From Candidatus Korobacteraceae bacterium (GTDB taxonomy: Bacteria; Acidobacteriota; Terriglobia; Terriglobales; Acidobacteriaceae): 64,000 nucleotides of DNA. Location of the stretch: NCBI GenBank assembly GCA_049521655.1, contig JBEKOO010000002.1, positions 84,502-148,501 of the forward strand, in the 5' to 3' direction. Shown here one piece after another: positions 1,105 to 51,611 of this stretch. The stretch's first letter is position 1. Every line of letters begins with the position of its first letter. The position numbers were made by a program, and so were the translations under genes. Under the pieces are notes generated by a model that saw only the letters and a list, made by a program, of their open reading frames with translations, was not told where the DNA came from and ran no database searches.

Positions 1105-2196
<1,092 letters not shown>

Positions 2197-2208
2197 GAGG
2201 CAGGGATC

Positions 2209-2889
2209 ATGACAAAGTCAGAGGCGATCAAGAGAGTTCTGGAGGTTGGGATCATTCCGGTGGTGCGGGCCGAATCGGCTGCCCAGGCGCTGGCGGCGGC
2301 CGAGGCGGTGTGTGCCGGCGGTGTGCCAATCGTGGAAGTTACGATGACCGTGCCAGGTGCGCTGGAGGTGATTGCGCAACTGAGCAAGAGCGTGGGCCAA
2401 GAGGTACTGATCGGCGCGGGGACCGTTCTGGATGCCGAGAACGCACGGAGATGTTTGGATGCGGGAGCGCAGTTCCTCGTCAGTCCCGGCCTGAATCTGG
2501 AGACCGTGAAACTCGCCCAGAAAGCGGGAGTCATGGTGATGCCCGGGGCTCTGACTCCAACCGAAGTGATCACGGCATGGCAGGCCGGAGCGGATTTCGT
2601 CAAGGTGTTTCCGTGTGGAGCGGTGGGAGGGCCCCAATACATTAAGGCGCTGAAAGGGCCATTGCCGCAGGTACCGATGATTCCGACCGGTGGAGTGAAT
2701 CTGAAGACGGCGGCGGAGTTCATCCAGGCCGGCGCGGCCGCGCTAGGCATTGGCGGAGAGTTGGTTTCGCTGGCGGCGCTTCGCTCCGGTAACACCCAGG
2801 AAATTACGGAAGCGGCGAAGCGGTATGTGGAAATTATCCATGAGGCGCGCCACCCGAAACCGGCTGCGGCCTCCGTGGCAGTTCGATGA
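2209..2889 (+). CDS. eda: KDPG / 4-hydroxy-2-oxoglutarate aldolase
   Basis: 226 aa. Typical Eda layout: IIPVVR…, EVTMTVPGA, GAGTVL, …FVKVFPC…GG…PTGGV. Confidence 0.85.
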   Translation: MTKSEAIKRVLEVGIIPVVRAESAAQALAAAEAVCAGGVPIVEVTMTVPGALEVIAQLSKSVGQEVLIGAGTVLDAENARRCLDAGAQFLVSPGLNLETVKLAQKAGVMVMPGALTPTEVITAWQAGADFVKVFPCGAVGGPQYIKALKGPLPQVPMIPTGGVNLKTAAEFIQAGAAALGIGGELVSLAALRSGNTQEITEAAKRYVEIIHEARHPKPAAASVAVR

Positions 2890-5986: not shown

Positions 5987-6190
5987 GTTACCGAGGACCT
6001 GCTTCTCCGGGTTTTAGGAGGCGAGGTTGAATGAAAGGAATGCGGTTATGGAGAGGATGGACGGGCGGCGGCAAATCGCTGATTTATAACGTCCACCCAG
6101 GGGCGCACCGACTTTCCGGTAACTGGCTCAGTTCGTTGTAACAAGTGCATCGCACTCACGAGAGTATTCAAATAGATTTGGAGGGTTGGC

Positions 6191-15013: not shown

Positions 15014-15315
15014 GCATTCTCCTAATGAAATGATTCAGACTCTAGTTTGCCACATCGCCTGAACATGCAAGTTCAATCCCTCTGCAATTCATCATAGATT
15101 GATAAGACTGGCGTACGATATACGATTGAAGCTGCGTAGAAATTTCATTTCATCCGCCGCCTTTCTGCCGCTGGTGCGGATCGCACTCCGGCATGGCGAT
15201 GCCGGCAGGGAATCGTTTCACTAGTTTAGAAGCGGAGAGATGCGTAATTCTGATGGCTGCTACTTTTTTTGTCGGGAAAGAAGTTTCTATTCACCCAGCT
15301 TTGTGTTTTCGCCGA

Positions 15316-16143
15316 ATGAGCGTGGCGGCACGTTTCTTGCTGATGGCGGCGCTCCTCCTGGCTCCACTCTCGTTGCTCGCCCAGGGCGGACCACCGCTGC
15401 TGACCGACGATCCGGGGACGCCGGGGCGCAACAACTGGGAGATCAATCTCGGCTACACCATCGACCGCCAGCCCGGCGACAACTATTACGAGACTCCCAT
15501 TCTCGATATGAATTACGGATGGGGCGATCGCGTCCAGCTCAAGTATGAGATGCCGTACATCTACAACAGCACGGGTGGCGGAGCGCTTGCCTCCGGCCCA
15601 GGCGACTCGAAGTTCGGGGTCAAGATCCGCTTTTTCGAAGACAAGAAGCTTGACCTGAACATCGGCACCTATCCGCAGATCGAAATAAACAACACCAACA
15701 ATTCGGTGCACCGCGGTCTGGTCTACAAGGGACCGCTCTTCCTGCTTCCGCTTGAGGTCACCAAGAAAGTCGGGCCTGTCGATGTTGATCTGGAGGTGGG
15801 ACACTGGTTCACGCAGCAGCAGGGATACTGGATCAGCGGTCTGGCCCTCGGCCATCAGGCAACCCGGCGGCTGGAGCTTCTGGGCGAGGTTTACAGCAAC
15901 GGCACTCCCCAGGGCGAGCGCGATAATACCTTCGACTTCGGCGGCCGCTACCGTTTGAACCGGAAAGCGCTCTTCATCTTCATGGCCGGGCGCAGCTTCA
16001 GCCCGCCAAGCAGCGGCCAATCGCAGCTCATCGGGTACTTCGGAATGCAGTTCCAGCTTGGACGACACCTGCGCGACGACCCTGAAGTAGAGCAGCACAA
16101 TGCAGCGCCTTCCGCGGGAACCCTGCAAAGAAAACTTCCCTGA
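15316..16143 (+). CDS. Outer-membrane beta-barrel protein (MetA-pathway/phenol-degradation-like transporter family)
   Basis: Signal peptide MSVAARFLLMAALLLAPLSLLAQ, then LLTDDPGTPG… and alternating beta-strand patterns. Start moved from 15193 to the ATG at 15316. Confidence 0.5.
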   Translation: MSVAARFLLMAALLLAPLSLLAQGGPPLLTDDPGTPGRNNWEINLGYTIDRQPGDNYYETPILDMNYGWGDRVQLKYEMPYIYNSTGGGALASGPGDSKFGVKIRFFEDKKLDLNIGTYPQIEINNTNNSVHRGLVYKGPLFLLPLEVTKKVGPVDVDLEVGHWFTQQQGYWISGLALGHQATRRLELLGEVYSNGTPQGERDNTFDFGGRYRLNRKALFIFMAGRSFSPPSSGQSQLIGYFGMQFQLGRHLRDDPEVEQHNAAPSAGTLQRKLP

Positions 16144-28157: not shown

Positions 28158-28589
28158 ATGGCAATTGCCGACTTTCGATCCGTGCTGCGCTTCCGAGTGC
28201 CGTTCTGTGATGTGGACATGTTGCAGCATGTGAACCACGCCTCCTATGTGATATGGGCGGAAACCGTTCGCTCTAATTATTTCGAAGAGGTGCTCAAGGA
28301 AAAGCTAACCGGGGCAAGCGGCGTCATTCTGGCGCGATTGGAATTTGACTATGAACAGCCCCTCGACTATCGCGAGGATGTTGTGGTCGGGTGCCGGATT
28401 TCGCGGGTGGGGCGCAAATCCTTCGACTTCGCATATGAGATCTGGAGTGAGACTCATGGGAAACGCGCTGCACGCGGACTCTCGGTGATGGTCGCTTTCG
28501 ACTATCATGCCAAAGCGTCCATCGTGATCCCGGAACGATGGTGCAAGCTCATCGCCGCTTACGAGATAGTTGCACCGACCGTGGGGTAG
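28158..28589 (+). CDS. Acyl-CoA thioesterase, 4HBT/YbgC-like hot-dog fold
   Basis: 143 aa. …VPFCDVDMLQHVNHASY… is typical of the 4HBT family. Confidence 0.75.
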   Translation: MAIADFRSVLRFRVPFCDVDMLQHVNHASYVIWAETVRSNYFEEVLKEKLTGASGVILARLEFDYEQPLDYREDVVVGCRISRVGRKSFDFAYEIWSETHGKRAARGLSVMVAFDYHAKASIVIPERWCKLIAAYEIVAPTVG

Positions 28590-28643: not shown

Positions 28644-28746
28644 CGCATTGACGTTGGCGGATCTCAAAGCGCAACAGAGTCTTGGACGAAATCCATGAGC
28701 AGGCAGTCGGGAATCGCGTAATCACGGACAACAACCCGCCTTAATC

Positions 28747-28908
28747 AAAAAAGCGGCCCGGTTGAGGGTCGCTTTCTGAAAGAGGCAAGGGAGGGTGGGA
28801 TCGCTAGGCAGGAAAAGTTAGGCGCTGCTCCCCTGAACCAGAGCGGCTTTGAGAAGTCGGTACTTCATGAGAGGGAATTGCATCTTGAATGTCACGGCCT
28901 CTTTGTTA
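28747..28908 (-). ncRNA. Candidate sigma-54-dependent small RNA (about 160 nt)
   Basis: It lies between the sigma-54 promoter (28919-28934) and a hairpin plus U6 terminator (28753-28772 / 28747-28752). 5' AAAGAGGC (28904->28897) is perfectly complementary to GCCUCUUU (28786->28779). A C/U-rich stretch UCCCACCCUCCCUUGCCUCUUUC is present. The only ORFs are 21 and 16 codons and have no well-placed SD. Confidence 0.45.
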
Positions 28909-28918
28909 CTTTCTTTGA

Positions 28919-28934
28919 TGCACGTTCCGTGCCA
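28919..28934 (-). promoter_or_regulatory. Sigma-54 (-24/-12) promoter
   Basis: The minus strand reads TGGCACG-GAAC-GTGCA against the consensus TGGCACG-N4-TTGC(A/T). GG and GC are in the canonical register with one mismatch. It lies 148 bp downstream of the stop of a GAFTGA-containing activator. Confidence 0.6.
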
Positions 28935-29081
28935 AGCGGAGCAGAATTTCTAGGCGTAATCAAGAAAATGTCTAACTTATTCACCTTAGAGGAATTCGGC
29001 GAAGTCGAGAGTTTCTAATTCAGAACCGTCGAGCTGGAAACAGAGAAAAAAATCGTCGCTAGTGGAATTCATCTACTACTA

Positions 29082-30575
29082 TTAAGTAATTGTAGTCTTC
29101 TTGTTGCTACGATCCTGCCGCTCCATCAACTTCATTTTATTGAGCAGCGCCTTGTAACTCACCTTCAAAATCTTAGCCGCCTGTCGACGGTTCCAGCGCG
29201 TCTCGGTGAGCACTCGCTCAATCGCCACGCGTTCAGCCTCCATGGCAGCGCGCCGACCGATTTCCAGAAGCGAGAGCGAAGCCGATTCAGGTGAGGCTGG
29301 ACGAGCGCCCGGCAGAGTTGAATCTGCTGAGGAGATGCCGGAGGTGCTGTTTTCTTGTGGCTCCAAAACAATGCTGGCACTGCCAATGATGGACGAATTC
29401 GGCGGCTTATGGGAGGAGAGTTCACGAATGATCTGCGGTTCATTGCCCACGATGACGTATCGCTTCACCAGGTTTTCCAACTCGCGAATGTTGCCTGGCC
29501 AGCTATACTCCAGCATGCGGCTCACCGCATAATCGGTAAACGGAGGAGGCTGCTTTCCATAGTACTCGCTGTATTTGCGCAGCATAAAATCTAGGAAGAT
29601 GGGAATTTCTTCCTTGCGCTCGCGCAGCGGCGGAATGTGAATGGTCACAACGTTCAGCCGGTAGAACAGGTCTTCGCGGAATGTGCCTTCCTCCACCGCG
29701 CGCTCTAAGTGCTTGTTGGTGGCCGCCAGGACTCGGACATCGACCGCGATATCGCGCTTTCCGCCAAGGCGGGAGAATTCTCCATCCTGCAGAACGTGCA
29801 GGAGTTTTGCCTGCAGCGCCGGATGCATCTCGCTGATTTCATCGAGGAAGATCGTTCCCCCGTGGGCGAGGTCAAATTTGCCCAGCTTCTGCCGGTTCGC
29901 TCCGGTAAATGCGCCCGGTTCATAGCCGAACAGTTCGCTCTCCAGCAGTTCATGGGGAATGGCTGCACAGTTTACCTTGACAAATGGTTTCTCGCGCCGT
30001 GACGAATGGGAGAACACCATGCGCGCCACTACTTCCTTGCCGGTGCCGCTCTCTCCCCGGACGAGCACCGTGACATTGGTGTCTGCCACCTGCTCGATGG
30101 TGTTCTTTACGTCCTCCATTTTTGGGCTGGTGCCGAACAACATGCTGAAGTCGTTTTGCCGCCGCATCTGGTCGCGTAGCTGCGTTACCTCGCTGGTCAG
30201 CCGCTGTCCGTCCAACAGGCGGGTCATCCGCTGGTCCAGGGCAGTCAAGTCAAGCGGTTTGGCGATGAAGTCATCGGCTCCCAGCTTGGAGGCGCGAAAG
30301 ACCAGCTCGGGTGCGCCGCTGCTGGCGGTCATGATCACCGAGACCTCTGGCTTCATCTGCTTCAGCCTCTCCAGCGTTTCCATCCCGTCCATGCCCCGCG
30401 CATCCGCATCCAGCAGCACCAGGGCGGGATCAAAGACCCGGAACATCCGAATCGCTTCATCCCCGGTTGAAGCCAAACTTACGTCATAGCCGCGTCGGGT
30501 CAAGTGCGTGCTCAGGAAGCTCGATTGGGCGCGATCATCCTCCACAATCAATACCCTCGTCCTGCCAGTCTGCAT
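29082..30575 (-). CDS. Sigma-54-dependent response regulator (NtrC family enhancer-binding protein)
   Basis: REC domain (VLIVEDD…LLDADARGMDG), AAA+ domain (GESGTGKE, GAFTGA, RxDLFYRL) and a Fis-type HTH (RWNRRQAAKILKVSYKALLNKMK). Start moved to MQTGRTRVLIVEDD at 30575. The ORF track extends to 30887. Confidence 0.85.
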   Translation of the reverse strand: MQTGRTRVLIVEDDRAQSSFLSTHLTRRGYDVSLASTGDEAIRMFRVFDPALVLLDADARGMDGMETLERLKQMKPEVSVIMTASSGAPELVFRASKLGADDFIAKPLDLTALDQRMTRLLDGQRLTSEVTQLRDQMRRQNDFSMLFGTSPKMEDVKNTIEQVADTNVTVLVRGESGTGKEVVARMVFSHSSRREKPFVKVNCAAIPHELLESELFGYEPGAFTGANRQKLGKFDLAHGGTIFLDEISEMHPALQAKLLHVLQDGEFSRLGGKRDIAVDVRVLAATNKHLERAVEEGTFREDLFYRLNVVTIHIPPLRERKEEIPIFLDFMLRKYSEYYGKQPPPFTDYAVSRMLEYSWPGNIRELENLVKRYVIVGNEPQIIRELSSHKPPNSSIIGSASIVLEPQENSTSGISSADSTLPGARPASPESASLSLLEIGRRAAMEAERVAIERVLTETRWNRRQAAKILKVSYKALLNKMKLMERQDRSNKKTTIT

Positions 30576-31165
30576 GATGGCGCCCTTATCGGAGTTCAGT
30601 TTCACATTTTTCCCCGGCCCAAAAGAATCCCGGACAATCAGATTTGCAACGCTTATGAGGACTGCCGAACTCGGCGCTCCGAAATACACGCTCTTTCTAA
30701 AGAGCGGGCGAGAAGGAAAACAGTTGCCTGCAGAGTTGCTGCGATCGATGCTTTTTCTAGGTCCCTTACGCCATGAAAGTGGTGTACCTATGCAAACATC
30801 ACCTGGAGTATGGTAGCGTGAATTCCTAGAGTTAGCACAATTATATACACGATATGTACATAGATTCCACTTTTGCCAGCTCTGCATCTACCCATGGATG
30901 CCCCGCCAGAATGGCGTTAGCGGTAACACGACCGGAAGGCTATTGCTCTCTCATCCCGCAGGAACGGCTTTGGCAAACGCCAGATGACGCTTCGTGACCT
31001 CGGTGCGAGAGACGCGCCGGAGGGCAAGAACGGGGTGGAAACCGCACAGAAACTTATGCTACCAGTTGCGCTATTCAGTCTGGCGAGCCTAAGCTGGGCA
31101 GAATCACATGGCTGCAGGACGTCGTGAGCATTCCTGTCTGACTTCGGGAACGTAAGGAGTTAAAG

Positions 31166-32368
31166 ATGCTCGAGGCAACCTCGGAAAACACACTGGGCCT
31201 GGTGATGACAGGCGGGGGTGCCCGCGGCGCATATCAAGCGGGTGTCCTTAAGCGCATCGGCGAGATAAAACGGGTTCGGGCACGCGGCAATCCCTTTCCT
31301 ATCATCGGAGCTGCTTCGGCTGGAGCAATCAATGGTGTCGCCCTGGCCGCCGGGAGCAACAATTTCTCGTTGACAACCGCAATACTCGCGCGGCTTTGGT
31401 CGAATCTCCGGCCTTCGGATATTTTTCGCTGCGATGTTTTTTCCCAGGCCGCCAACTCCGTCGCCTGGATTCTGGATCTTTCTTTTGGGGCCATTCTTGG
31501 AGGAGGCAGTGCACATTCACTGCTCGATGCGAAACCATTACGCCGCTTCCTGAATCGTCATCTGCACTGCGAGCAGATAGAAGTCAACATTAAGCAAGGG
31601 CACCTTTACGCGCTCGCGATTTCTGCGACGAACTATACCTCGGGGAAATCCTACATCTTCATTCAAGGCAAAAAAGGTCACCCGATGTGGAGCAGAAGCC
31701 GGCGAGTGACTCTGGCAATGCCGATTACCGTTGACCACGTGTGTGCATCCGCTGCGATTCCGCTGGTCTTTCAGCCAATACGGCTTAAGACTTCGGAAGG
31801 GACGGCTTTCTATGGCGACGGTTGCGTGCGACTTCAGCAACCGCTCAGCCCGGCTATCCGCTTAGGCGCAAATAAAATTGTGGCGATCGGTGTCAGATGT
31901 GAAAATCTTGAACATCAGGAGGATACTGGGGGGCGGGAATATCCTTCAATTGCGCAGGTCATAGGCGTTCTTTTGAATGCGATGTTCCTGGATCATCTGC
32001 CCACGGATGTCGAGCATCTGGAGCGGTTGAATCAACTGCTCACCGCTGGCGATATAAGTCAGTCCGGAATAGAAGGTTATGAAAGGATGCGCCCTCTCAG
32101 GTCGCTGATCATCACGCCGTCGGTCAATTTATCGGAACTGGCCAAACAACATGCCAAGGACATGCCTTATCTCATCCAATATTTCGTTAAGAGTTTAGGA
32201 CGAGACGTAGCTTCATGTTCGGACTTGATCAGTTACCTGCTGTTCACATCGCAATATACGAATGCTCTCATCGAGATTGGCTACAGTGACGCCAGCCAGC
32301 GCATCGAAGAAATTGAGCAGTTTCTCTATGCTTCCGATCAGGGAGCCCCGGCAGCGGCGGGAGCTTAG
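31166..32368 (+). CDS. Patatin-like phospholipase
   Basis: 400 aa. Oxyanion GGGARGAYQAGVL, nucleophile GASAGA (GxSxG), YGDGC (DG dyad). GGAG SD. Confidence 0.8.
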   Translation: MLEATSENTLGLVMTGGGARGAYQAGVLKRIGEIKRVRARGNPFPIIGAASAGAINGVALAAGSNNFSLTTAILARLWSNLRPSDIFRCDVFSQAANSVAWILDLSFGAILGGGSAHSLLDAKPLRRFLNRHLHCEQIEVNIKQGHLYALAISATNYTSGKSYIFIQGKKGHPMWSRSRRVTLAMPITVDHVCASAAIPLVFQPIRLKTSEGTAFYGDGCVRLQQPLSPAIRLGANKIVAIGVRCENLEHQEDTGGREYPSIAQVIGVLLNAMFLDHLPTDVEHLERLNQLLTAGDISQSGIEGYERMRPLRSLIITPSVNLSELAKQHAKDMPYLIQYFVKSLGRDVASCSDLISYLLFTSQYTNALIEIGYSDASQRIEEIEQFLYASDQGAPAAAGA

Positions 32369-50335: not shown

Positions 50336-50474
50336 GGATGCATCCTCCCTGTTTTTCCTTTTTCCCGGTCACGATTCTGGCATCTGCTTTGCATCCCGCT
50401 CCCTTTGCCTTAGCTACATTCGTGAAATGGTCGTAATCTTGCTATTCTGCTGAAAATAGTTCTAGGACAAGAGA

Positions 50475-51611
50475 GTGGAACCAAGACATTCGGGCAACCT
50501 CCCGGCGCTGCTGGACCCGCTTTATGACGCGGCGCTACAGCCTGAACTATGGAAGGTCTTCCTGCAGAAGGTTTCCGAGGCGCTGCGCGCCGACAAGGTG
50601 GCGATTCTAGTTGTTTCTCCCGGACGCCAGCGGACCGACATTCATGCTGATCTTGGATTCAGCAATGAGATGCGCCACGACGTGGAAGAGCTGGCGACCA
50701 TTAGTCCATGGCTCGTAGAGATTGAGAAGCACAGGAGTGTTGGTTGGTACGTCGGTCGCACACAAGACGAGCTATCCATGGAGAGCTTCCGTAAGTCGAA
50801 GTTCTATCTTGAAGCGCTTCACAAGCACAATGTCGAGTGGAGCGCCGCAGCGGTTCTCTTCATGCCTGGGGGCGCAATGCACGGCCTGGTGACGTCGCGC
50901 CCGAAGACAGGGCGACCGTTCAGCGCCATTGACAAGGAACTGCTGAAGCAATTGGTGCCGCACCTGCGCCGGGCCTTCAATATTCACGGGACGACGGCGG
51001 CGCTGCGCCATTGCAATGCCGCCAGCCAGAGCGCCCTGGATCTGGTTGGCGCCGCATGTATCTTCCTCGATGCCAATGGTCGGGTTCTGTCTACGAGCCG
51101 GCGCGCCGAGGCCTTGATTGCAGATGCTGCAACCCTGCGCATTAGAAATCACCGTCTGCTGACTTCGCTCTCCGTGGAGCAGAATGCGTTGGAGGCATGC
51201 GTCCTTCCTGCCTGTGCCTGCGGCGCAGGCAAGTCTTCGGATCCCGGCGCGGGCGCTATTGTGTTGCATACCAGCCACGGAACTCCGCTCTACATATCGG
51301 TCCTGCCCTGCCATTCGAGCCGCGCCTTCCTGGGGAACAATCCGGCGGCGCTGCTTTTCATCACCACCCCGGAGCAGCAGGGGCGCGGTGAGCATAGGCT
51401 TTGGCAGTCAATGTTCGGATTGTCTCCTGCCGAGTGCCGCGTGGCGGAGATGATGAAGCAGGGAATGGAGGTCGCTGAGATCTCCGAAGCGATAAGAATC
51501 AAGGTGGACACCGTCCGCTACTATCAGAAATGCATCTATCGCAAGACCAGCGTGCGCGGACAGGGACAACTCATGCGGCTGCTGACCAGGCTGCCTTCCA
51601 GCCTCCCATAA
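50475..51611 (+). CDS. LuxR-family transcriptional regulator with a large N-terminal sensory region
   Basis: 378 aa. C-terminal HTH LSPAECRVAEMMKQGMEVAEISEAIRIKVDTVRYYQKCIYRKTSV. GTG start. Confidence 0.75.
   Translation: MEPRHSGNLPALLDPLYDAALQPELWKVFLQKVSEALRADKVAILVVSPGRQRTDIHADLGFSNEMRHDVEELATISPWLVEIEKHRSVGWYVGRTQDELSMESFRKSKFYLEALHKHNVEWSAAAVLFMPGGAMHGLVTSRPKTGRPFSAIDKELLKQLVPHLRRAFNIHGTTAALRHCNAASQSALDLVGAACIFLDANGRVLSTSRRAEALIADAATLRIRNHRLLTSLSVEQNALEACVLPACACGAGKSSDPGAGAIVLHTSHGTPLYISVLPCHSSRAFLGNNPAALLFITTPEQQGRGEHRLWQSMFGLSPAECRVAEMMKQGMEVAEISEAIRIKVDTVRYYQKCIYRKTSVRGQGQLMRLLTRLPSSLP

Follow-up and report, generated by a model that had tools for sequence, protein, structure and literature searches.

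A putative sigma-54-dependent small RNA with a conserved short reading frame, linked to an NtrC-family activator gene in Terriglobales

Organization of the locus

The window analysed here, a 64,000-nt stretch of contig JBEKOO010000002.1 from Candidatus Korobacteraceae bacterium, contains a compact element directly downstream of the gene of an NtrC-family sigma-54 activator (bacterial enhancer-binding protein). The activator gene (29082–30575, minus strand) encodes 497 amino acids with REC, AAA+ and Fis-type helix-turn-helix domains, as follows from the Pfam assignments (REC; Sigma54_activat, E 3.9e-72; HTH_8) and from the translation, which contains the GAFTGA motif. The protein scores under all NCBIfam equivalog cutoffs (391 of 714 bits for AtoC and 386 of 503 bits for the PEP-CTERM regulator). 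The -24 box of a putative sigma-54 promoter (28919–28934) is located 148 nt 3' of the activator stop codon (29082–29084), and the predicted transcript of ~160 nt (28747–28910) runs from the inferred start through a short open reading frame (ORF, 28818–28883) to the U-run of an intrinsic terminator; all parts of the element lie on the minus strand. The first-pass annotation, made from the letters of the window, had placed a REC-AAA+(GAFTGA)-Fis activator here with the element 148 bp past its stop, and had proposed that the two form a module of an activator and a sigma-54-driven small transcript. The coordinates and the domains of that description are confirmed, and the module is supported by promoter conservation, by a covariance model and by compensatory base changes. 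Judging from the comparison with relatives, it is very probable that the unit is a real, activator-coupled sigma-54 transcript, and most likely it represents a real, new family of small RNAs of this kind.

Conservation of the element and its linkage to the activator

Relatives were collected in two ways. A scan with the activator protein, restricted to one genome per species, yielded 80 loci, nearly all of them from Acidobacteriota/Terriglobales; the activator orthologues of the 80 Terriglobales loci show 68–87% amino-acid identity. Independently of any protein, metagenomes were searched with the DNA pattern AAAGAGGC-N92-122-CCTCCCTTGCCTCTTT, which returned at least 120 contigs, with less than one chance match expected as estimated from its 24 specified bases. 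A covariance model of the element was built from 17 sequences of a single clade, that of the window being excluded. The model recovers the element of the window (28747–28910(-), 50.5 bits, E 3.6e-8) with no second copy in the 64 kb, and it gives exactly one full-length match per locus in 79 loci, standing directly after the orthologous activator in each of the 79 usable genome loci. Among the matches listed for the metagenomes, the activator orthologue ends 173–222 nt upstream of the element in 88 of the 90 contigs with enough upstream sequence; one of these matches is a false positive according to the covariance model and one is a true element without activator. Altogether, more than 190 related genomes and contigs of metagenomes carry the element, the majority being from soil and peat metagenomes; it is abundant in contigs of bog metagenomes.

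A BLASTN comparison of the intergenic region of the window matches most of the 80 loci, the similarity starting between ~10 nt (locus L001) and ~60 nt (L006 and L007) before the -24 box and ending just past the terminator; the 3' C/U tract and the terminator can still be aligned in distant loci. The closest relative of the window, the syntenic metagenome stretch L148, has 90–92% nucleotide identity to it. The 147-bp spacer that separates the promoter from the activator stop (28935–29081) is not conserved and shows no alignable similarity, the closest loci included, and synteny of the window's other neighbours was found in none of the 80 genome loci. It is unlikely that the element is the 3' untranslated region of the activator, since the spacer is not conserved whereas the internal promoter is. 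The order of the shared blocks is TTTGG-N9-TGC, AACAAAGAGGCC 15–19 nt further, a start codon and CCCTCTTCC, followed by a hairpin whose sequence varies, a stretch rich in pyrimidines with the invariant GCCTCTTT at its end and, last, a GC-rich hairpin with a T-run. Such a distribution suggests that the element is, most likely, an autonomous small gene travelling with its own enhancer-binding activator.

Two loci deviate from this picture. In L032 a partial second copy (6094–6165; model positions 60–136, 25 bits) lies ~220 nt 3' of the complete one and comprises the hairpin, CATCGCCTTCCCTGA and the C/U tract. The activator-less element in L086 (1571–1734, 98 bits), the sole such case among the matches listed, is accompanied by a convergent GvpL/F-like gene and may result from a rearrangement or mis-assembly.

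The sigma-54 promoter

The promoter TGGCACGGAACGTGCA has its -24 TGG at 28934–28932 and its -12 TGC at 28922–28920. As had been reported for the span 28934 to 28919, it is near-consensus: GG and GC are in the GG-N10-GC register and there is one mismatch to TGGCACG-N4-TTGCW. Conservation of the -24/-12 element in related genomes had been put forward as a check, and the register is kept in 77 of 77 orthologous loci, where GG-N10-GC stands 32–36 nt (mode 34) 5' of the GAGG core of a conserved AAAGAGG. T-G-G and T-G-C do not vary among 74 distinct promoter sequences, apart from the first T (73 of 74); the following base is A or T in 71, and the intervening bases vary freely. The orthologous promoters do not keep the CAC of the -24 box, and a strict sigma-54 pattern misses them. 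This conservation of TGG-N9-TGC is the pattern expected of a working -24/-12 promoter. The spacing from the -12 box would put the start of transcription ~6 nt 5' of AAAGAGG, at 28908–28910 in the window.

Any enhancer sites of the activator (upstream activating sequences) would be contained in the spacer 28935–29081. Weak 7-mers, TGTG(C/G)AA and TT(C/G)CACA (TGTGSAA/TTSCACA), recur in the spacers of at most 18 of 77 loci; in this minority their positions, counted from the -24 GG, are near -26, -90 and -120 to -136, and the window has ATTCCAC near -136 (29062–29068(-)). It is possible that the recurring 7-mers are sites of the activator or of IHF.

Three further promoter-like sequences deserve mention. 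A second match to the consensus with at most one mismatch, CGGCACGTTTCTTGCT (15326–15341(+)), lies inside the ORF 15193–16143 and is probably due to chance. The first-pass statement that the window holds no other good sigma-54 promoter has to be withdrawn: a near-canonical site (TGGCATCTGCTTTGCA / CTGGCATCTGCTTTGCATCC, 50378–50393(+)) is located in an intergenic region, 82 nt 5' of the GTG start codon of a GerE/LuxR-HTH gene (50475–51611), and may be a second target of a sigma-54 activator in the window. Finally, TGGTACGCATATTGCA, found ~1.1 kb 5' of the activator in several relatives (L001, position 2860; L002, L004, L023 and L071), was rejected as a promoter, being the coding start of a GvpL/F-like gene (ATG GCG TGG TAC GCA TAT TGC, MAWYAYC) and a trap for motif scans.

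Structure of the predicted transcript

Covariation was scored on a model-based alignment of 80 sequences (the 79 loci and the window). This alignment was used instead of a plain MAFFT alignment, in which the variable hairpins are misaligned and from which RNAalifold finds the invariant helix only. The inner hairpin SL2 (28824–28847, GC.CGCUC / GGGAG.GC) is situated inside the short ORF. Compensatory changes are seen in 6 of its 6 pairs, 93% of the alignment cells are paired, and no locus lacks a hairpin at this position, the stem occurring in at least 10 sequence variants. The intrinsic terminator (28747–28775) consists of AAA, the hairpin GCGACCC-loop-GGGCCGC and UUUUUU; its hairpin (28772–28753, with one A-C mismatch) and the T-run that follows it (TTTTTT, 28752–28747) agree with the first-pass assignment. 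All 7 terminator pairs have compensatory changes, 99.8% of the cells are paired and a strong U-run is found in all loci. A simple terminator scan omits this hairpin owing to the A-C mismatch, and the covariation confirms it. In total 149 cells are compensatory, vs 36 in the shuffled control and 12–48 when the partners are slid by 1–3 columns; 13 of 21 pairs are compensatory and the covariation score is 0.292, vs 0.05–0.07 in the slid controls. The recovery of the window's element by a model of the orthologous regions, together with the compensatory changes in SL2 and the terminator, is the outcome of a second check proposed with the first-pass annotation.

The two hairpins are accompanied by a predicted closing helix formed by AAAGAGGC (28897–28904) and GCCUCUUU (28779–28786), the latter being the exact complement (DNA GCCTCTTT) as had been noticed before. 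The hexamers AAGAGG and CCUCUU are the only fully invariant ones in the 80 sequences; they are paired with each other in 80 of 80 minimum-free-energy folds with a base-pair probability of ~1. Of the proposed helix, the conservation and the pairing (99.1% of cells) stand, the latter predicted in every fold. Compensatory changes are absent from its 8 pairs (6 are invariant and 2 one-sided), and its 5' arm is not just a helix arm, as it is at the same time the Shine-Dalgarno-like element of the short ORF; the 3' arm is correspondingly an anti-Shine-Dalgarno sequence. An internal CCCUCUC (28869–28875), less conserved than the 3' arm, may serve as an alternative partner of AAGAGG in the nascent RNA: for 74 of the 80 RNAs, folding of the first ~60 nt leads to pairing of AAGAGG with the internal CCUCU(U).

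The short reading frame

The short ORF MQFPLMKYRLLKAALVQGSSA (28818–28883) has 21 codons and ends with TAA; a 16-codon ORF begins at an internal ATG of the same frame. The first-pass annotation had called the transcript ORF-poor. This was correct in so far as these two are the only ORFs and lie where it had placed them, and it does not hold in so far as start, frame and stop are conserved across lineages (in ~80% of them). The Shine-Dalgarno-like AAAGAGG stands 14 nt 5' of the ATG in the window and 7–15 nt (18 nt in one locus) 5' of the start codon in the relatives. In 60 of 77 loci the ORF has 25–31 codons, starts with ATG (38), TTG (15) or GTG (7) and ends at one aligned stop, TGA (55), TAA (4) or TAG (1), located 15–27 nt before GCCUCUUU. 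Of the 72 loci outside the window's clade, 62 have an uninterrupted frame from the start to the stop codon, the interval being divisible by three at lengths of 75, 78, 81, 84, 87, 90 and 129 nt. Parsimony on the activator tree gives at least 19 in-frame length changes vs ~8 others, where one-third in frame would be expected without selection on the frame. The window's clade has a distinct 21-codon version (M.VPLKKYRLL...S[SG][VAI]), which is kept in ~25 of 31 distinct members, metagenome sequences included, with TAA, TAG or TGA at the same place. In L036 (2670–2884) the ORF/hairpin region carries an insertion of 42–45 nt, and the frame is open (43 codons) to the usual stop.

These features would be expected if the locus were a micropeptide gene, the alternative raised in the first-pass annotation, in which the peptide of 21 (elsewhere 25–31) residues is the functional product and the RNA features only keep its translation tightly controlled. 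The spaced Shine-Dalgarno-like sequence, the independent in-frame length changes, the interchange of TGA, TAA and TAG at the stop position, the persistence of the 21-codon form and the recurring N-terminal (xxPL..RLL / TSTLFQ..RLL) and C-terminal (HRLP) peptide motifs all agree with this explanation. However, no purifying selection on the peptide sequence was detected, the synonymous fraction being 0.25–0.31 in the true frame vs 0.22–0.31 in the shifted ones. For the window-type 21-codon ORF it is 0.25 in the real frame, 0.25 in the +1 frame and 0.31 in the -1 frame; the respective values are 0.30, 0.23 and 0.29 for the 12 N-terminal codons of the main clade and 0.31, 0.22 and 0.25 for its 6 C-terminal codons and stop. 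Nor is there a relaxation of the third codon position, which is not the most variable one (entropies of 1.02, 1.28 and 1.07 for positions 1 to 3). In its central part the peptide is free to change along with the covarying hairpin, a region that is read in different frames in L054 and L057. The frame is lost with all RNA blocks kept in a clade of seven loci (L008–12, L017 and L018) and in several single loci, among them L148, where one extra nucleotide behind codon 9 shifts it. Conservation of single bases is highest outside the short ORF or at its edges, and the best-conserved unpaired sequence is in the 3' untranslated part. Ten short peptides were absent from a collection of 15 billion proteins by exact-sequence look-up, and one main-clade peptide has no family in Pfam or NCBIfam. 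Weighed together, these data leave the micropeptide gene possible but doubtful. Probably, the frame is selected and translated as a leader-like ORF rather than as a gene for a specific peptide.

Two other types of peptide-coding transcript were considered and rejected. The peptides are polar and charged, with R, K, Q, S, D and H throughout, and are not hydrophobic or membrane-like as in a type I toxin mRNA; a precursor of a ribosomally synthesized and post-translationally modified peptide was discarded as no modifying enzymes are linked to the locus.

Flanking genes

In the window the activator and its element are flanked by a divergent patatin-like gene and by a convergent thioesterase gene (28158–28589(+)). 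The window contains no histidine kinase gene adjoining the activator and no co-oriented gene downstream of the element. The earlier observation that no histidine kinase stands next to the activator is thus borne out within the window. The designation as an orphan activator holds there as well, and it fails in about one quarter of the relatives, where a hybrid histidine kinase is encoded directly upstream. The activator is an orphan only locally, its flanking members being either lost from the window or never present. The 590 nt (30576–31165) that separate the start of the activator from the divergent patatin-like gene hold no convincing gene; L148 diverges just past this region, and positions 30880–32362 of the window have no alignment to it.

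The usual order in the genome loci is a GvpL/GvpF-family gene, the hybrid kinase (in ~21 loci), the activator, the element and a dksA/traR-like gene. Upstream of the activator, most loci have the GvpL/GvpF-family gene (PF06386, E 1.8e-47; e.g. L001, 2854–3597), and no gas-vesicle structural genes were seen in the related stretches examined, which span ~9 kb per locus. The kinase linked to the activator–element pair has the composition REC-GAF-HisKA-HATPase (e.g. region L008, 2145–3788). Both genes are absent from the window. Of the 80 genome loci, at least 72 have the dksA/traR-like gene in the same orientation as the element, ~110–480 nt (mostly <300 nt) behind it; a gene of the DksA/TraR type stands downstream in 84 of 107 testable metagenome contigs among the matches listed.

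Given this neighbour, the element could be regarded as the 5' leader of the DksA/TraR-like gene, with the short ORF and the terminator acting as a translation-coupled attenuator. The layout of a short ORF followed by a terminator, with a conserved Pro-stop ending, recalls leader peptides; the TnaC leader peptide ends with ..HRP-UGA. Nevertheless, the element is intact in the window and in 23 of the 107 contigs among the matches listed, all of which are devoid of the dksA-like gene. Furthermore, a conserved sigma-70-type promoter, TTGACG-N17-TATGAT/TATCAT, is located between the terminator and the dksA-like gene (e.g. L009, 5865–6043), no alternative antiterminator pairing is evident, and the terminator is paired almost without exception and followed by a strong U-run at every locus. 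As the dksA-like gene has its own conserved promoter, the element is a separate unit and not merely the leader of that gene. The leader explanation was rejected on the grounds of this promoter and of the absence of the gene from the window, and we consider it very unlikely. A GCATC(C/T)AA motif was observed 30–60 nt upstream of the -35 box of the dksA-like promoter, and a degenerate form of it, TCGTCCAAGAC, is kept in the window at 28679–28689(-), where the dksA-like gene is missing.

Pyrimidine-rich tracts

The region 28787–28817 (CUUUUCCUGCC...UCCCACCCUCCCUU) is rich in pyrimidines and predicted to be single-stranded, which makes it a candidate seed or binding tract. The C/U-rich tract that had been noticed just upstream of the 3' helix arm is indeed there (TCCCACCCTCCCTTGCC, immediately 5' of the arm). 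The region is C/U-rich in all loci, and the mean unpaired probability of the two tracts is 0.6–0.8. The tracts resemble the CCUCC of the 16S 3' end, i.e. the anti-Shine-Dalgarno sequence. In the window, the region around the ribosome-binding site of a KDPG/KHG aldolase gene (2209–2889), UAAGAGGCAGGGAUCAUG (2170–2211(+)), could base-pair with UCCCUUGCCUCUU of the small RNA, leaving one bulge; it is an isolated match, found post hoc.

These tracts can be understood in two ways: as a seed pairing to mRNAs, or as motifs of a sponge RNA that sequester an RNA-binding protein in the manner of CrcZ, which acts so on Hfq/Crc. The latter explanation is consistent with three to four C/U-rich tracts per RNA that are predicted to be unpaired, with central tracts conserved in composition more than in exact sequence across clades, and with the absence of an mRNA signal in target searches among the neighbour genes and the ORFs of the window; CrcZ is likewise sigma-54 dependent and linked to its activator. 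On the other hand, the locus has no candidate for a binding protein linked to it, the RNA is short and has few motif copies in comparison with known sponges, and pairing to Shine-Dalgarno sequences fits the resemblance of the motifs to the 16S anti-Shine-Dalgarno at least as well. A titrating sponge is in our opinion unlikely.

Assessment of the small-RNA reading

A number of results weigh against the reading of the element as a sigma-54-dependent regulatory RNA. The promoter motif taken alone is at chance level, as 2 matches with at most one mismatch occur in the window vs 0.96 expected per 64 kb, and the single-sequence fold of the 164-nt RNA is similar to that of shuffled sequences (z = -0.68). 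A k-mer search of the spacers of 77 loci gave no convincing enhancer site of the activator. The closing helix has no covariation support in the 80 sequences because it never varies. Start, frame and stop of the short ORF are clearly under selection, which makes a purely non-coding reading incomplete. Regarding targets, none emerged: the RNAduplex energies against the dksA-like, GvpL/F-like and activator genes, computed for their translation-initiation regions in all loci, are about those of shuffled sequences (z ~0), and an RNAduplex scan against the window's 53 ORFs was uninformative, giving loopy, non-discriminating duplexes only.

The first two of these points could be taken to mean that the whole observation is a coincidence, i.e. 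that the -24/-12 match is fortuitous and the hairpin merely terminates the activator gene or, acting bidirectionally, the convergent thioesterase gene. This explanation is refuted by the conservation of the promoter-to-terminator block, which more than 190 loci with differing flanks share in the same register and with covariation; besides, the loci cannot be assembly artefacts of one sequence, as they have 74 distinct promoters. Its probability is practically negligible. It is the conservation of this block that lifts the observation above chance, since the promoter match and the fold are at chance level when considered alone. The case is a cautionary one: single-sequence evidence did not exceed the chance level, and comparison alone revealed the element as real.

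Proposed mechanism

Comparison establishes that the unit exists with its promoter, terminator and hairpin, that it is linked to the activator and that its frame is conserved. On the basis of these sequence features, we infer that the RNA is expressed in dependence on sigma-54 and the activator. The REC-domain activator, once switched on (presumably through phosphorylation by a kinase encoded elsewhere in the genome), would drive sigma-54 RNA polymerase from the TGG-N9-TGC promoter, and the product would be an RNA of ~160 nt ending at the conserved intrinsic terminator. This RNA is predicted to fold into a panhandle, in which AAAGAGGC would pair first with the internal CCCUCU of the nascent RNA and then with GCCUCUUU near the 3' end. 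The panhandle would mask the RNA's own ribosome-binding site and enclose one covarying hairpin, two pyrimidine-rich tracts being left unpaired. These C/U tracts may be the working surface of the molecule, binding in trans to the purine-rich Shine-Dalgarno regions of mRNAs and causing repression of the anti-Shine-Dalgarno type; binding of a protein by the tracts is less likely. The short ORF is probably translated, at least during RNA synthesis, and the act of translation would matter for folding, stability or exposure of the seed. We hold this complete explanation, including the action in trans through the C/U tracts, with moderate confidence.

A more specific version can be offered only tentatively, and we rate it as improbable. 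The element may be a translation-gated riboregulator, in which the anti-Shine-Dalgarno seed (GCCUCUUU and the C/U tracts) is held inactive in the panhandle by the RNA's own ribosome-binding site. If this is true, ribosome loading on an ORF of conserved frame and unconstrained sequence would decide on the release of the seed, and a two-component signal would be coupled to the translational state of the cell. It would be a new design of a dual-function small RNA and the first regulatory RNA circuit defined in the phylum, widespread in soil Acidobacteriota.

Even in its general form the element is of interest in several respects. Terriglobales belong to the most abundant bacteria of soil and peat, and no regulatory RNA described for them was found in Rfam or in the literature searched. 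The element is a putative output of an uncharacterised activator that falls below every NCBIfam equivalog cutoff, and it offers a testable circuit in which a single response-regulator activator is joined to a single sigma-54 promoter and a single small RNA across all the related genomes and contigs found. The covariance model can be used to annotate the family. Selection on a frame without selection on its sequence bears on the distinction between translated regulatory ORFs and micropeptide genes.

Comparison with known systems

The first-pass annotation had regarded the element as having no described equivalent in this kind of genome, and the searches of Rfam and of the literature on Acidobacteria support this view. 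At gathering scores the whole window gave only a transfer RNA located elsewhere; for the region 28650–29000, at E up to 10, there was a meaningless 10-bit match and none with E <8.9. The literature on Acidobacteria yielded no matching description of such an element. As no Rfam model matches, the element stands outside the described families.

Partial likenesses exist to two groups of peptide-coding RNAs. In type I toxin mRNAs (hok, aapA1) successive masking of the Shine-Dalgarno sequence is described for aapA1, and the Shine-Dalgarno sequence of the present element is similarly predicted to be masked by an internal and then by a 3'-end anti-Shine-Dalgarno. The peptide of the element is, however, not hydrophobic, no antisense partner turned up, although none was searched for, and sigma-54 control and linkage to an activator are not features of hok/aapA1-type systems. 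The dual-function small RNAs SgrS/SgrT, RNAIII/hld and SR1/SR1P are likewise short transcripts with conserved RNA elements and a conserved short frame. In those RNAs the peptide sequence is conserved and functional, whereas the frame of the element is conserved with no amino-acid constraint. We know of no sigma-54-dependent dual-function small RNA.

Closer are the small RNAs that depend on NtrC-family activators and are often encoded beside the activator gene: CrcZ with CbrB (Pseudomonas, Azotobacter), NrsZ with NtrC, Qrr with LuxO and GlmY with GlrR. They are proteobacterial families with Rfam models of their own. CrcZ acts by protein titration via A-rich motifs and Qrr by Hfq-dependent pairing; to our knowledge, none of the four has a conserved short ORF. 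The sigma-54 promoter and the transcription start of crcZ have been mapped (PMC6292655). The element resembles this group in having a sigma-54 promoter and an NtrC-family activator encoded beside it, and differs in that the Rfam models of these families do not match it.

The closest functional parallels are Pxr/nla19 and Dv_sRNA2/DVU0679, followed by the four pairs just named; as analogues of the layout these two are better than NrsZ and Qrr, to which the first-pass annotation had pointed. The Pxr small RNA of Myxococcus xanthus and other myxobacteria is encoded in the intergenic region immediately downstream of nla19, which codes for a sigma-54-dependent response regulator. A sigma-54 promoter of its own is predicted for this small RNA, several stem-loops make up its fold, and its position is conserved across the bacterial order while the other neighbours vary (PMC5568312). 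The same combination of a small-RNA gene directly after a sigma-54 activator, an own sigma-54 promoter and a linkage that persists among varying neighbours is found here, in another phylum and with no sequence or structure similarity according to the Rfam scans. A frame-conserved short ORF or a Shine-Dalgarno/anti-Shine-Dalgarno panhandle is not mentioned for Pxr in the part of its description considered here. Dv_sRNA2 lies directly downstream of the gene of the response regulator DVU0679 and is the mapped target of this regulator, the arrangement being conserved in related species (PMC3333781). The likeness again consists in a small RNA directly downstream of a regulator gene in a conserved arrangement; binding of the regulator to the DNA is experimental for DVU0679 and inferred for the present activator, and no similarity between the two RNAs was detected. 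In terms of its sequence features the element is a member of none of these families, and it appears to work in the way of their activator-adjacent small-RNA modules.

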